A stretch of DNA of 64,000 nucleotides from Candidatus Microgenomates bacterium (GTDB taxonomy: Bacteria; Patescibacteriota; Microgenomatia; UBA8517). The DNA lies in the NCBI GenBank assembly GCA_049523135.1, contig JBEKNE010000001.1, positions 18,095 through 82,094 of the forward strand, written 5' to 3'. Position 1 is the first letter of the stretch. Each line of letters begins with the position of its first letter. The notes beneath the pieces are model-generated. The model was not told the DNA's origin, did not search any database, and saw nothing but the letters and a program-made list of their open reading frames with translations. Made by a program: the position numbers and the translations under genes. Shown here in pieces: positions 14,117 through 56,551 of this stretch.

Positions 14117-15154
14117 TTATTTAATCAATCCTATTTTATCTTTAACTTCTTTAATAGTTTCTGAGGCAATTTTCTCAGCCTTCTCGGCACCCTCATAGAT
14201 TATCTTACCAACCAAAGAAGGATCGTTTTGATAAATCTTTCTTCGCTCTTGGATTGGCTTCAATTCTTTATAAATCGCTTCCGCAAGTTCCAATTTCAAA
14301 TCTCCATACTTTATCCCGGATCCTTTATAATCTGCTTCATACTTTTTCCTCTTTTCAGTCCCTTCAAAAAGTTCAACAAACTGCAAAAGATTGGTGACAC
14401 CACCTTTCTCGGGAACTTTTTCTCCTTTTCCTGAATCCGTCGGGGCACTTGCCAATTTCTTTTTTATCTCATTAAGACTGTCTGTCAGTGAAATAAAACT
14501 TCCTTCTACGCTTTTACTCATCTTTCCCTCCCCTGTCAGAGACGGAACATATTCGCCCTCTGTTGCAAACCTTTTTGGTTCCGGAAAATCAGTTCCGTAT
14601 TTCGCGTTCATTTTCCTAGCAATTTCTCTTGCAACCTCCAAATGGGGTTCCTGATCAATTCCAACAGGAACAAGGCTAGCTTTATATAAAAGAATATCCG
14701 CAGCCATTAAAACAGGATAATTGAGAAGTGCCATGGTTACACTATCGGGGTGTTGAGCCACTTTTTCCTTAAACGTCGGCAAGTGCTGCATCCTGGCAAC
14801 AGAAATTTCGGATGAAAGAATATGGGCAAAATAAGTATGTTCTGGAATTAAAGATTGAGCCGAAATGATTGACTTTTCGGGGTCAAGTCCGCAGGCAAGG
14901 TAATCTATAATGACATTTCTGGTATTTTCCGCCAATTTCTCCTTATCAAAAGGGGTGGTTATGGCATGCAAATCCATAACCATATAAATGGTCTCATACT
15001 CGGGGTTATTTTGCAGTTCCAAATAACCCTTTACCGCACCCAGGTAGTTACCAAGGTGCAATCTCCCTGTAGCTCTTGTACCGGAAAAAACACGTTTCTT
15101 TTTCATATCTAGAACCAATCTTACTTCAGAATGAGGGAAAAAGGAAGAAACCAA
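14117..15154 (-). CDS. trpS: Tryptophan--tRNA ligase
   Basis: HLGNYLG (HIGH-like) and KMSKS motifs. Class I aaRS of TrpRS length. Confidence 0.9.
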   Translation of the reverse strand: MVSSFFPHSEVRLVLDMKKKRVFSGTRATGRLHLGNYLGAVKGYLELQNNPEYETIYMVMDLHAITTPFDKEKLAENTRNVIIDYLACGLDPEKSIISAQSLIPEHTYFAHILSSEISVARMQHLPTFKEKVAQHPDSVTMALLNYPVLMAADILLYKASLVPVGIDQEPHLEVAREIARKMNAKYGTDFPEPKRFATEGEYVPSLTGEGKMSKSVEGSFISLTDSLNEIKKKLASAPTDSGKGEKVPEKGGVTNLLQFVELFEGTEKRKKYEADYKGSGIKYGDLKLELAEAIYKELKPIQERRKIYQNDPSLVGKIIYEGAEKAEKIASETIKEVKDKIGLIK

Positions 15155-15421: not shown

Positions 15422-15465
15422 ACAAAGCCATTATATTGAAGGGCTAATCTTTGTCAACAAATTAG

Positions 15466-15539
15466 TAGCAGGGGTGGGGCTCGAACCCACGACCGCCGGG
15501 ATATGAATCCGGTGCTCTACCCAGCTGAGCTACCCTGCC
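15466..15539 (-). tRNA. tRNA(CAU), elongator Met or Ile2-type, intron-less
   Basis: Hand-folded cloverleaf: acceptor GGCAGGG/CCCTGCT, D-arm GCTC-AGCTGGGTA-GAGC, anticodon loop TTCATAT (CAU), T-arm GTGGG-TTCGAGC-CCCAC. 74 nt, CCA not encoded. Confidence 0.75.
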
Positions 15540-16227
15540 TTGAAAAATTTCTACCCGCTTCAGATAAACCCTTAATCAACCCCAGTATTTTATAATAAAT
15601 ATCACTACCTTTCAAAACGGTCACACCCAAAGTCCCATAATGGTTATTAAAGTTGGCATAAACTTTATGTAGCTTCGTTTTTTTAAAACTGGTTTTCCTG
15701 AATCGATCCAGAGGAATTCCCGTAATGTCAGACCAGTACCTTTTAACAATATTTTCTCTATTCCTGTGAATTTCATTTATTCCAACCACAGCTTTTAGAC
15801 GATCAAACCCCACACCATAGAACTTCTTAAGCCATGAGATCATAAAATTAATGAGCTCTGGATCAGAGTTACAGATGTAAAACTCACGTTTCTTTTTCGA
15901 TCCCTCTCCCCAATATAGAGCTATTCCTGCGACAAAAAATTCTTCATCAGAAAGGTTTTCTAATTGATCTCGACCTTCATTCTCCCGTTGTTTTATTAAA
16001 TCCAGCCTTCTATTTTTCTGCATCAGCGATCCTTTCAAACGACCCAATTCTCCACCTTTAATCTTCCTTTTCTTTAACACCTTAAGTTGCTCAACAGACA
16101 AAATCATATCTCTCACCCACAAACTGGCGGTGCTCTTTGTCACACCAACTTTTTTAGCAATTACTCCGACACTCTCACCTTTGGCTCGCATCTCTCTAGC
16201 TTTTATCCTTTGTAAATACTTAGCCAT
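15517..16227 (-). CDS. HTH + LAGLIDADG-like putative homing endonuclease (free-standing). The 3' end overlaps the tRNA(CAU) 5' end by about 23 nt.
   Basis: N-terminal resolvase/sigma-r4-like HTH (GESVGVIAKKVGVTKSTASLW). Central FFVAGIALYWGEGSKKK...INFMISWLKKFYGVG resembles a single LAGLIDADG motif with its following helix. Confidence 0.45.
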   Translation of the reverse strand: MAKYLQRIKAREMRAKGESVGVIAKKVGVTKSTASLWVRDMILSVEQLKVLKKRKIKGGELGRLKGSLMQKNRRLDLIKQRENEGRDQLENLSDEEFFVAGIALYWGEGSKKKREFYICNSDPELINFMISWLKKFYGVGFDRLKAVVGINEIHRNRENIVKRYWSDITGIPLDRFRKTSFKKTKLHKVYANFNNHYGTLGVTVLKGSDIYYKILGLIKGLSEAGRNFSRQGSSAG

Positions 16228-16267
16228 GAATTTATAGTACTTTCATTATACGGAGGTTCGATTATTC

Positions 16268-16296
16268 TTGTCAATAATTCAAATTTGATATATAAT
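16268..16296 (+). promoter_or_regulatory. Sigma-70-like promoter TTGTCA-17nt-TATAAT driving the intron-containing tRNA
   Basis: Near-consensus -35/-10 hexamers with 17-nt spacing, about 18 nt upstream of tRNA position 1. Confidence 0.45.
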
Positions 16297-16313
16297 TCCC
16301 TTTATTAGTTATA

Positions 16314-16581
16314 TGCGGGGTAGTGTACGGCTGCACGTGAGGCTCAAATTGGGCCATTTCTAAGAGATTAGAATGAAATCTGACTGTATCGGTGAAACCT
16401 AAAATTTAGTCATGGCAACGCCGAGGCAATCCACACTTAGTTATGAATGTGGCGAGTCCGTAGAGACTATACGCCAGACTCTGAATAAGATTTCAGGGAA
16501 GACATAGTCCGACACTCCGGGAAACCGGAGAAACGCGAAAAGCATAATCTCGCAGGCTGGGTTCAACTCCCAGCCCCGCAA
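16314..16581 (+). tRNA. tRNA(CAU) gene interrupted by a group I intron (exons 16314-16344 and 16543-16581)
   Basis: Acceptor UGCGGGG pairs with CCCCGCA 268 nt downstream. D-arm GUGU-ACGGCU-GCAC. Anticodon stem UGAGG/UCUCG spans the insertion. Spliced anticodon loop is CU|CAUAA. T-arm CUGGG-UUCAACU-CCCAG. Mature length about 70 nt. Confidence 0.6.
16345..16542 (+). ncRNA. Group I self-splicing intron (~198 nt, IC3-like, no ORF) in the tRNA anticodon loop
   Basis: R-like GUAGAGACUAUA and S-like AAGACAUAGUCC elements can form P7 (GACUAU/AUAGUC). Other stretches (AUGGCAACGCCGAG, GAAACCUAA) recall small bacterial tRNA group I introns. It ends in G before the 3' exon. A P1 is possible between exon GGCU and intron GGCC. 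Confidence 0.55.
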
Positions 16582-16588
16582 CACGAAG

Positions 16589-16978
16589 TTAAAAGAACAG
16601 TTTTTCCCACTTTTTCCAATTAGGATCTGGTAGGGTTTCTTCCTCGGTCGGCTCAGGTGGTGCAAGCTTTCTTAAAGTATCGTCATCCGGCAGAATCACT
16701 ATCGCCTCCCCCCGTTTAACCAAACCTAGCTTATCCCTGATCTGTTTCTCGATATATTCCGACCCTTGGGTCTGGGCAATTTGAGCCTGAAGCGCCGCAT
16801 TATCAGCCTCCATCTTGGAAACCTTTTGCCTCTCCTTTTCAACCTCAGCTCTGATTGCGATTACCTTTTGAATATTCCTAACCGTAGAAAGAAGGAGTAT
16901 GGCTACAAGTACCCATATGGCATACCCTAAGATCTTTTTGCCTTTGAGCCTTAACCCCTCTATTATTTTACCTTCCAT
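16589..16978 (-). CDS. ftsB: Septum formation initiator family protein (FtsB/DivIC-like)
   Basis: N-terminal TM helix followed by a coiled-coil (EVEKERQKVSKMEADNAALQAQIAQ) and a proline-rich tail. Confidence 0.6.
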   Translation of the reverse strand: MEGKIIEGLRLKGKKILGYAIWVLVAILLLSTVRNIQKVIAIRAEVEKERQKVSKMEADNAALQAQIAQTQGSEYIEKQIRDKLGLVKRGEAIVILPDDDTLRKLAPPEPTEEETLPDPNWKKWEKLFF

Positions 16979-17058: not shown

Positions 17059-17922
17059 ATGACACAAGAACCTATCAAAAATCTGCTTCCGAAGTTTATC
17101 GAATCCCTTAAAGTTAAGGGCCGCTCTCCTGCGACCATTTTAGCCTACAGAAGCGATCTTGAGCAACTCGTGGATTACCTTATTAAAAGGCAAAAAGTCC
17201 TACCTGAACAGGTTCGCCCGGATGATCTCGATAGCTTTAGGGATACCCTTTTGGCTGACAAATATACGCCTAAATCCGTTAGCCGCAAACTAAATGCAGT
17301 TAAAACTTTCTTTAGGTGGATGATTTCGGAGAATATTGTTACTTCCGATGTCTCAGCCTCAGTTGCACATCCTAAGATTGAGAATTCTCTTCCTAAATTC
17401 CTTTCTCAAATGGAATACAGAGCTTTAAGAGATGTAACGCGCAGTGATGTTAGAATCGCTGCAATTATAGAGCTTATTCTTCAAACGGGACTTAGGATTT
17501 CAGAAGTTGCCAGTCTTAAAACCGCCAATGTGGGTAAGGATTCTATGAAAATTGAAGCCTATGCCACACAGCCCGAAAGGACGGTTCCTGTTAATAAACC
17601 GGCCGTAGATGTTCTAGCTGCCTATATGGCAATCCGCCCCAAGGCTGATTCTCCTTATGTCTTTATTAGTAAAAACGGCAAACCCTTGGCTGTCAGAAAC
17701 ATCCGCGCTTCAATTGCCAGATACGTTCAAAGAGCAGAACTTCCGGGTTATTCAGTTAATGATTTGAGGACTACTTTTATTGTCGAAAATCTCAAAGCTG
17801 GAGTTGATATTGTCCTTCTTTCTCAGGTCTCCGGCCATAAGCGCCTTTCTACAACTGAAAGGTATCTTGAGCTTGCCCAAATAACTGAACCCGGCAAAAA
17901 GCAAATCCTTATCGAGCTTTAA
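17059..17922 (+). CDS. Tyrosine site-specific recombinase (XerC/XerD-like)
   Basis: N-terminal SAM-like core-binding domain (ATILAYRSDLEQLVDYL). C-terminal catalytic region LRTTF...HKRLSTTERYLEL with the tyrosine nucleophile. Confidence 0.8.
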   Translation: MTQEPIKNLLPKFIESLKVKGRSPATILAYRSDLEQLVDYLIKRQKVLPEQVRPDDLDSFRDTLLADKYTPKSVSRKLNAVKTFFRWMISENIVTSDVSASVAHPKIENSLPKFLSQMEYRALRDVTRSDVRIAAIIELILQTGLRISEVASLKTANVGKDSMKIEAYATQPERTVPVNKPAVDVLAAYMAIRPKADSPYVFISKNGKPLAVRNIRASIARYVQRAELPGYSVNDLRTTFIVENLKAGVDIVLLSQVSGHKRLSTTERYLELAQITEPGKKQILIEL

Positions 17923-17930
17923 AAATCTTG

Positions 17931-18001
17931 TGGATCCGGATAGAGTCGAACTATCGCTTCGTGTTTATAAGACGCGTATCCTACCGTTAAACGACGGATC
18001 C
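17931..18001 (-). tRNA. tRNA-like gene with anticodon UAU (Ile?). The D-arm is weak, so it may be a pseudo-tRNA.
   Basis: Perfect 7-bp acceptor GGATCCG/CGGATCC and a good T-arm GATAG-TTCGACT-CTATC. Anticodon loop CTTATAA. The D-stem has 3 G-U pairs and the anticodon stem has a C-A mismatch. It lies 9 nt from the recombinase stop. Confidence 0.45.
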
Positions 18002-55662: not shown

Positions 55663-55771
55663 TTTAATTACTTATTTCCTTACCTGGATTATATTCCTTC
55701 TGACAAATGTTTATAAATGCTTGGAAGTTGCTATATAATACGCTTAGTTAGAGACCTAAAACTTTATAGTC

Positions 55772-56551
55772 ATGGTCAAAAAGCCTCAGTGGGTAAAAGC
55801 TCGTCATCAGAGCTTCTCACTGAGGTCGTGTCTCGAAAGGGACATGGGTAGTCGAAAGACTGCCACTGGTGGCGAGCTTTTTCGTGGTAATAAGCTCCCA
55901 AAAAATAAAATCATGCTTACAAAAGAACAGAAATTAAAAATAAAAGAAGAGGAGAAATTCAGGGCTCAGGTTAGAAATGAGCAAGAGCAGAAAGAAAAAC
56001 CCAATAGAGGAAAAGGTTGTCTGGTTGTAATTGCTATATTTATTGGTTTGGCTATCGTGATGGGAATTACCCAAGGATTATATCGAGCTTCACTCCCCAA
56101 GCCTACTCCTTCGCCAACTCCATCTGCAAAATTTATGTCAGACCTCTCAGATTTATTCTGTCTAAGCAGGCAGGGAATATATGCCTATGAAAGTTTTATT
56201 TGCATGGGTTGTGCAAACCTTGACGATATTCACAGTTTTCTTAATAGCTCTGAGCCTGTAACAATCAACAAAGCTGAAAAAGCTCCCACAAAGGAATCCT
56301 GCAACAATGTCGCCAGTGATTGCGTACAAAGATGGGATGAAAAGACCTGTATAAATATCGCAGCTCAAAAATACTGGCTGGGAATGACAAAAGACCAGTT
56401 AATTACCTCACTTGGCCTCCCCAATCAACAGAATGATACTGTTGGAAGCTGGGGATTTCATACTCAATGGGTCTATGGGACTTATGGCCCATATATTTAT
56501 TTGGAAGGAACAGACAAAGACCATTTAAAGGTAACAAGTTATCAGGATTAA
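55772..56551 (+). CDS. Hypothetical membrane-anchored protein with Cys-rich extracytoplasmic domain (start uncertain, possibly Met at ~55907)
   Basis: Lys/Glu-rich segment, a TM helix, then a domain with several Cys. Confidence 0.4.
   Translation: MVKKPQWVKARHQSFSLRSCLERDMGSRKTATGGELFRGNKLPKNKIMLTKEQKLKIKEEEKFRAQVRNEQEQKEKPNRGKGCLVVIAIFIGLAIVMGITQGLYRASLPKPTPSPTPSAKFMSDLSDLFCLSRQGIYAYESFICMGCANLDDIHSFLNSSEPVTINKAEKAPTKESCNNVASDCVQRWDEKTCINIAAQKYWLGMTKDQLITSLGLPNQQNDTVGSWGFHTQWVYGTYGPYIYLEGTDKDHLKVTSYQD

Follow-up and report, generated by a model that had tools for sequence, protein, structure and literature searches.

Group I introns in the tRNA genes of Patescibacteria, a group that also bears the name Candidate Phyla Radiation (CPR), have been surveyed in 95 complete genomes by Nakagawa et al. 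(mSystems 2026, PMC13011429; preprint 10.1101/2025.07.03.662931). In 19 of the 95 genomes they found tRNA genes interrupted by such introns, 22 genes in all; their Table 1 has 25 rows, which include three divergent tRNA-Thr introns. Two Microgenomatia genomes of the survey, GCA_001029755.1 and GCA_013426185.1, carry an intron between positions 33 and 34 of a Met(CAU) gene (PMC13011429, Table 1/S3), and in one of the two the gene was miscalled by ARAGORN as Leu(CAA) with the intron at 36/37. Here we describe a gene of the same kind in a stretch of 64,000 nucleotides (nt) from a Candidatus Microgenomates bacterium (assembly GCA_049523135.1, contig JBEKNE010000001.1, positions 18,095 to 82,094), referred to below as the window. 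We hold with high confidence that positions 16314–16581 of its forward strand are a Woesebacteria-type (Microgenomatia, Patescibacteria/CPR) tRNA(CAU) gene, interrupted at U33/C34 by a group I intron of 198 nt that has no open reading frame (ORF), and we propose the mechanism of splicing set out below. The reading of the insert as an intron is based on homology, on its exact boundaries and on structural and tertiary covariation, whilst catalysis by the 198-nt intron itself is inferred.

The window intron is an unexceptional member of the published family, although genes of this kind are often mis-annotated. It is found in the same tRNA gene as the two Microgenomatia Met(CAU) introns, at the same U33|C34 site, with the same internal guide sequence (UGGGC) and the same layout of paired regions P1–P9; like them it is ORF-less and of similar size (theirs are 190–216 nt), and it gives rise to the same ARAGORN Leu(CAA) miscall. 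It differs in coming from another genome and in an intron sequence that is merely 64–70% identical: identity to the two published cases is 97% and 89% over the exons and 64% and 70% over the introns. The family divides into two sub-families on the loop of P9 and the form of P5, as described below. The window intron belongs with that of GCA_013426185.1 to the one with a GAAA loop (L9) and a receptor-like P5, and the intron of GCA_001029755.1 appears, from its sequence and its similarity to that of a related locus (L106), to belong to the one with a GUAA L9. The original prediction had considered the 33/34 site to be atypical and a tRNA group I intron to be unusual in a CPR genome. Position 33/34 in tRNA-fMet is, however, called a well-characterised site in the survey (PMC13011429), and the intron type fMet.2Ug is among the four classical types of bacterial tRNA intron (Williams 2020, bioRxiv 10.1101/2020.01.27.920355). 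The site and the presence of such an intron in CPR were thus both known before.

The classical tRNA-fMet 33/34 introns resemble the window intron in their insertion site, exon context ((G)GGCU|CAUAA), U·G/omega-G chemistry and type of guide. They are of subgroup IC3 and, in the available part of Table S5 of PMC13011429, occur in Cyanobacteriota and also in Desulfobacterota, Nitrospirota and Omnitrophota. Unlike the window intron, they measure 245–283 nt and include an extended 3' domain (CCACAAAC...GGCAGCGAAAGCUGUAGUGGUAAG) which it lacks, and some of them encode PD-(D/E)XK endonucleases. On a profile of the present family they score 24–51 bits, where IA3-type introns and those of Patescibacteria reach 61 bits. 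The Azoarcus-type intron of tRNA-Ile2(CAU) (Ile2.5Ug, IC3), reportedly described by Reinhold-Hurek and Shub in 1992, is closer in size: it is ~200 nt long with a compact P2–P9, and the strings AUGGCAACGCCGAG and GUAGAGACUA are common to both introns. Matches of these shared strings lie in tRNA(CAU) genes of Rhodocyclaceae, Dechloromonas and Propionivibrio. In the solved structure of the Azoarcus intron the GAAA loop of L9 has an 11-nt receptor in P5, and the window intron has a GAAA L9 and a P5 that resembles such a receptor. The Azoarcus-type intron differs, however, in following U36 (36/37) of another tRNA, where that of the window follows U33, and the two are unlike in J3/4-P4, P6 and J6/7. 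Over the full length of the intron no similarity outside Patescibacteria was found by BLAST. Within the phylum, the introns of tRNA-Asn and tRNA-Asp (subgroup IA) have a similar core and are mostly without a homing endonuclease gene, but they interrupt other tRNAs at another site, 35/36.

These comparisons bear on the subgroup, for which a likeness to the small IC3 introns had been suggested. Proteobacterial tRNA introns do have the string AUGGCAACGCCGAG in common with that of the window, but the case for an affinity to IC3 is not made. As a motif, AUGGCAACGCCGAG...GUAGAGACUA is common to tRNA introns of many phyla, including those in the Rhodocyclaceae tRNA(CAU) genes. In a small labelled sample, the profile of the present family gives 61.1 bits for an IA3-labelled intron and 60.6 for a Microgenomatia tRNA-Asp intron, with 38.9 for IB3 and 18–51 for IC3. 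Because of these scores, and because no IC introns were found among the tRNA introns of Patescibacteria (PMC13011429), the assignment leans away from IC3.

A gene divided between positions 33 and 34

The gene consists of a 31-nt exon 1, the 198-nt intron and a 39-nt exon 2, all on the plus strand. Exon 1 (16314–16344) contains the acceptor strand UGCGGGG (16314–20), the D-arm GUGU-ACGGCU-GCAC (16323–36), the anticodon-stem strand UGAGG (16338–42), C32 and U33. Exon 2 (16543–16581) opens with CAU (16543–45) and continues with A37, A38, the second anticodon-stem strand UCUCG (16548–52), a variable loop of 4 nt, the T-arm CUGGG-UUCAACU-CCCAG (16557–73), the acceptor strand CCCCGCA (16574–80) and the discriminator A; CCA is not encoded, the trailer being CAC. 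The acceptor stem, T-arm, D-arm and two-piece anticodon stem that had been proposed, and an insert of ~198 nt between them, are all in place, and the agreement goes well past what chance would give.

The intron (16345–16542, +) is matched by the Rfam group I covariance model RF00028 at 16293–16531 with 60.9 bits (gathering score 50; E = 5.5e-13 for the whole window), which is the outcome of the first check that the original prediction had suggested. Two relatives, L105 and L148, also score above the gathering threshold (58.2 and 52.8 bits). Spliced in silico, the sequence is recognised by ARAGORN as tRNA(cat). In the unspliced window, ARAGORN in default mode did not detect the split tRNA; in intron mode it found it, with a 198-nt intron, but with the boundary 3 nt downstream and the miscall Leu(CAA). 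The identical DNA is also present on a 640,746-bp Joint Genome Institute (JGI) contig.

We considered whether the locus might be another RNA, such as a transfer-messenger RNA (tmRNA), riboswitch or small RNA, or a coding segment, for which the 74-codon ORF at 16441–16665 on the minus strand would be the candidate. This is exceedingly improbable: in 16200–16700 RF00028 is the sole Rfam family with E ≤ 1, no tmRNA was found by ARAGORN, and the public gene calls on four identical contigs, whose tables hold protein-coding genes only, place no gene at the locus. The tmRNA, other-RNA and protein-coding readings were rejected on these results, and no family was found that fits better than a group I intron; such a better fit had been named beforehand as a finding that would count against it.

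The exact position of the intron was determined from orthologues. Scanning metagenome contigs with a 22-mer of exon 1, GCGGGGTAGTGTACGGCTGCAC (exon-1 positions 2–23), gave at least 119 stretches which, together with genome loci and the window, make up the 121 exon-1 occurrences underlying the orthologue counts; the 22-nt core is identical in the 121 listed. Of these, 65 are uninterrupted genes reading GGCU·CAUAA, and 30 have an insert of 182–266 nt exactly at this GGCU·CAUAA junction, or 35 with a looser pattern. The remainder are truncated by contig ends or have a variant exon 2. The intron is thus present in about one third of the orthologues sampled by exact exon-1 match. Taken alone, the window permits boundary shifts of 0, 1 or 2 nt with the same product, CUCAUAA, while a shift of 3 nt gives CAA. 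In the 35 intron-containing orthologues listed, the insert always begins after U33 and has G as its last base, and in several of them its first base is A or U, which removes the 0–2 nt ambiguity. These junctions therefore put the intron between positions 33 and 34 and give the anticodon as CAU, so that the predicted insertion site and spliced loop CUCAUAA stand.

Intron-less alleles with identical exons occupy syntenic contexts. The uninterrupted genes at L043:438–507 and L102:3714–3783 agree with the predicted spliced RNA of 70 nt at every position (100% identity) and score 46.6 bits with the tRNA model RF00005 (gathering 29). Three relatives, L148 with the intron and L102 and L145 without it, are syntenic with the window at ~75% nucleotide identity, indicating a presence/absence polymorphism at one locus. 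The cloverleaf is further supported by the anticodon-stem pairs 27:43 and 28:42, which covary among the orthologues (U:A, U·G, C:G, G:C and A:U).

The intron-mode output of ARAGORN corresponds to a different gene, a tRNA-Leu(CAA) with its intron 3 nt further downstream, and a cloverleaf that is formally equivalent, with CUCAAAA as its loop, can indeed be drawn. That boundary would, however, leave A at position −1 and U at the intron's 3' end, breaking the rule of U(−1) and G(omega) that is kept by 35 of 35 listed orthologous introns, and the 65 listed intron-less alleles all read CAUAA. The variable loop here is of 4 nt, whereas bacterial tRNA-Leu has a long variable arm. An identical ARAGORN miscall has been documented (PMC13011429). 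We give the Leu(CAA) boundary practically no chance, and take it to be ruled out by the alleles that lack the intron, together with the rule of U(−1) and G(omega).

Fold of the intron and proposed splicing

The structure was modelled manually because the Rfam alignment places P1 and P2 in upstream, non-intron sequence. For the pairing counts, 34 distinct orthologous introns were aligned with MAFFT without reference to structure, and the counts below refer to these 34. Under the model 88.8% of cells are paired, compared with 33–47% when the 3' partners are slid by 1–3 columns; 25 pairs have changes on both sides, and the observed covariation score was reached by none of 500 shuffles. When each sequence is folded alone, the P2, P6a, P8 and P9 hairpins form in 34 of 34.

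P1 is formed by the exon sequence GGCU (16341–44) and the intron guide GGCC (16352–55), the 5' splice site lying at U33·G. It is 98.5% paired and the splice-site U·G is present in 34 of 34 introns. The P10 guide UUG (16349–51) pairs with the CAU of exon 2 and is 94% paired. P2 (16358–16373, UUCUAA-GAGA-UUAGAA) is a hairpin with a GNRA loop; it is a hairpin throughout although its sequences are unrelated, with a GUAA loop in most, and here we use only the per-sequence folds because MAFFT misaligns P2 (~50% paired). P3 (UCUGAC, 16379–16384; GCCAGA, 16473–16478) forms a pseudoknot with P7 and is 97% paired, with compensatory changes in four of its six pairs. P4, J4/5 and P5 occupy 16389–16424, with P4 as UCGGUG/CGCCGA (99% paired, with covariation), J4/5 as AAA and the P5 hairpin as CCUAAA...CAUGG (16398–16415). 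P6 (GG/CC, 100% paired) and P6a, a hairpin CCACA...UGUGG found in all homologues, follow at 16425–16459.

In the 3' half of the intron, P7 pairs G-A(bulge)-GACUA (16463–16469) with UAGUCC (16505–16510) and crosses P3 as the group I pseudoknot; its six pairs are unchanged in 34 of 34. By likeness to solved group I introns, the pair G16465:C16509 beside the bulged A would be the guanosine-binding site. P8 (16479–16498, CUCUGAA-UAAGAU-UUCAGGG) is 76% paired, with changes on both sides in all seven pairs. It is followed by J8/7 (AAGACA, 16499–16504), an invariant core segment which precedes the 3' strand of P7. P9 (16515–16530, CUCCGG-GAAA-CCGGAG) is 97% paired, five of its six pairs being compensatory, and an 11-nt tail leads to the terminal guanosine (omega G) at 16542, the 3' splice site, which is G in 35 of 35 orthologous introns. 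The R- and S-like segments of P7, the terminal G and the GGCU/GGCC P1 that had been picked out beforehand are all present in the sequence.

The P5 of the window resembles the 11-nt receptor of the GAAA tetraloop, a loop and receptor whose pairing specificity is known. An L9 of GAAA is accompanied by a P5 of the CCUAA...AUGG type in 20 of 20 introns, and an L9 of GUAA or GCAA by a plain P5 in 14 of 14 (Fisher p = 7e-10, a value that ignores relatedness), an association that may reflect the known specificity. There are thus two structural sub-families of the intron, told apart by a co-varying tetraloop/receptor pair. Introns with GAAA-L9/receptor-P5 and with GUAA-L9/plain-P5 each occur in all of the anticodon-stem types (GUGAGG, GGAAGG and GCGAGG), which points either to an old polymorphism or to lateral exchange between Woesebacteria. 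The longest orthologous introns (L083:3641–3922 and that of L135, 266 nt) have an extra ~50–70 nt directly after P2 which folds as an added hairpin, possibly a P2.1. No homing endonuclease ORF is found in the 198-nt intron, and with orthologues of 182–266 nt there is no room for such a gene because the intron is too short; in the Patescibacteria survey homing endonuclease genes were confined to introns of more than 500 bp (PMC13011429).

Several points weigh against an active intron as modelled here. P3 of the window has a single A×C mismatch where relatives have G:C or A:U, and the third pair of P10 is U×U where 28 of 34 introns have A:U. P7 and P1, being invariant, provide no evidence from covariation. 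Since the Rfam alignment misassigns P1 and P2, both of these helices rest on the manual model and the comparative counts, and the shuffle test ignores the relatedness among the sequences. In Patescibacteria, self-splicing in vitro has been demonstrated for other tRNA introns, those of Asn and Asp, which are the ones assayed in PMC13011429.

With its P3 mismatch, its weak P10 of 2 bp and its lack of a homing endonuclease gene, the window copy could be read as a decayed, non-splicing intron that leaves a tRNA pseudogene. We think this very unlikely. The core segments are all intact and equal to the family consensus, the score is above the Rfam gathering threshold, and the A×C of P3 is also present in the nearest relative, L105. 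Intron-less genes that look functional match the exons with 100% identity, and the interrupted gene should be essential because genomes of this class appear to have just two CAU tRNAs. The group I intron that had been predicted to split the anticodon loop of a tRNA(CAU) is, by contrast, borne out by the covariance model, the intron-less alleles and covariation.

On the reading as an active intron, splicing would proceed as follows. The gene would be transcribed, probably from a TTGTCA-17-TATAAT site that stops 18 nt upstream of the first base of the tRNA, and the intron would fold into a compact P1–P9 ribozyme with the P3/P7 pseudoknot and the P4–P6 and P3–P8 stacks, the GAAA loop of L9 docking into the receptor-like P5. 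The end of exon 1, GGCU, would lie on the guide GGCC, placing U33 in the U·G wobble, where an exogenous guanosine held in P7 would attack after U33. G16542 would then move into the G site, while exon 2 would be aligned by the short P10 that CA(U) forms with (U)UG. Attack by the 3'-OH of U33 after G16542 would ligate the exons to give the loop CUCAUAA and free the intron. The tRNA would be finished by RNase P, 3' trimming and CCA addition.

Initiator or elongator

The orthologues are labelled 'Met (CAT)' by Nakagawa et al. because tRNAscan-SE calls the intron-less homologues Met (PMC13011429). ARAGORN, which labels every CAU tRNA as Met, detects only 1–2 'Met' genes in each complete Microgenomatia genome, next to 2 labelled 'Ile' (PMC13011429, Table S2). 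A tRNA-Ile(UAU) lies beside the loci studied here in 54 related contigs and in the window at 17930–18001 (−). An anticodon of UAU in tRNA-Ile is uncommon in bacteria. Its presence suggests that an Ile2(CAU) is unnecessary, AUA being read without a lysidine-containing tRNA-Ile2, and with only 1–2 'Met' genes per genome two CAU tRNAs then seem to supply both initiator and elongator.

A second tRNA(CAU) is found in the window at 15465–15539 (−), ~800 nt away. Its D-arm is ordinary and its anticodon loop reads UUCAUAU; position 1:72 is G1·U72, and there is a mismatch at A31×C39. In 61 related loci the interrupted gene has a companion of this sort, which resembles elongator tRNA-Met. In this other CAU class there is usually one gene per locus and 1:72 is always paired (G:C in 61, G·U in 26 and A:U in 3). 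Its members are nearer to the elongator tRNA-Met of Escherichia coli, to which up to 62 nt are identical, than to tRNA-fMet, whilst the interrupted class is nearer to the fMet references.

The acceptor stem of the interrupted tRNA, GCGGGG/CCCCGC, is identical with A73 to that of E. coli tRNA-fMet (reference sequence verified), the matching positions including G2:C71, C3:G70 and G4:C69. In E. coli G2:C71, C3:G70 and A73 are determinants for the formyltransferase. Positions 72 and 73 are both A in 108 of 108 orthologues. Position 1 is U in 101, forming a weak U:A pair as in the window (U1:A72), C in 6 and A in 1, the last two being mismatches; there is no compensation at position 72, and some orthologues have C1×A72. 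The D-loop of the interrupted tRNA is of 6 nt. Pairs 29–31:39–41 are A29:U41, G30:C40 and G31·U39, invariant in 108 of 108 orthologues while 27:43 and 28:42 covary.

Weighing these features, we judge the balance to be slightly in favour of the interrupted gene encoding the sole, non-canonical initiator of this Woesebacteria lineage and not, as published, an elongator tRNA-Met. Three features stand against an initiator: the anticodon stem does not have the three G:C pairs, the D-stem pair is U11:A24 in place of A11:U24, and 1:72 is U:A, and not a mismatch, in 94% of the orthologues. They favour the published alternative, as does the label itself, by which the gene would be an elongator tRNA-Met and a separate initiator would lie elsewhere in the genome. 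This alternative is a serious but somewhat less than even possibility. The count of just 1–2 'Met' genes per complete genome argues against it, as do the paired 1:72, ordinary D-arm and likeness to E. coli elongator tRNA-Met of the other CAU class, and the agreement of the interrupted class with E. coli tRNA-fMet at positions 2–4, 69–71 and 73. Further points against it are the tRNA-Ile(UAU) beside these loci, the constant A72 opposite an uncompensated position 1, and the invariance of pairs 29–31:39–41. A literature search linking initiator tRNA to Patescibacteria gave nothing relevant. The initiator reading leaves the verdict on the intron unchanged.

Neighbourhood and significance

The promoter-like site upstream of the gene (16268–16296, +; TTGTCA-17 nt-TATAAT) has 11 of 12 consensus positions and is identified as a consensus match only. 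An overlapping, divergent promoter-like site at 16274–16245 (−), TTGACA-18-TATAAT with 12 of 12 positions, faces the ORF at 15517–16227, and the two sites (16245–16296) use one common hexamer region. The neighbouring tryptophanyl-tRNA synthetase (14117–15154, −) is 82–83% identical to Candidatus Woesebacteria or Microgenomates proteins; judged by its sequence, the host is a Woesebacteria-like member of the Microgenomatia. Between the tRNA genes lies a tyrosine recombinase (17059–17922, +) with Phage_integrase and SAM-like N-terminal domains, which is probably Xer-like and not part of an integrated element because the synteny is conserved in relatives.

Three further observations were made in the window or among the relatives. 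A LOOT RNA motif (RF03000) is present at 55753–55864 (+) with 78.6 bits (gathering 46.4). Orthologues L042, L046, L088, L121, L123, L124 and L136 have the T-loop UCCAACU or UCCGACU, with C at position 55, and the same C55 T-loop is found in the neighbouring CAU tRNA class of some contigs; U (pseudouridine) at this position is almost universal in tRNA. A Ca. Saccharibacteria contig, L039, has intron-containing tRNA genes at 560–847 and 1917–2206, ~1 kb apart, one an Asp(GUC) and the other called Leu(CAA) by ARAGORN and probably another case of a CAU tRNA with an intron at 33/34.

The split gene is missed or mislabelled by standard tools, ARAGORN finding nothing in default mode and Leu(CAA) in intron mode, and as a result the genome appears to be without one of its two CAU tRNAs. 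It is a further case of a pattern already documented, in which small ORF-less group I introns persist in essential RNA genes of the genome-reduced CPR bacteria. To this the present survey adds that the intron is polymorphic among orthologues and that it exists in two structural sub-families with a co-varying tetraloop/receptor pair. Should the interrupted tRNA be the initiator, the published 'Met' label would need correcting, and the niche of the classical fMet 33/34 introns would extend to CPR with a different, IA3-like, intron lineage. The intron would then gate all translation initiation in its carriers, and about one third of these organisms would initiate all of their translation by way of a protein-free ribozyme splicing step.

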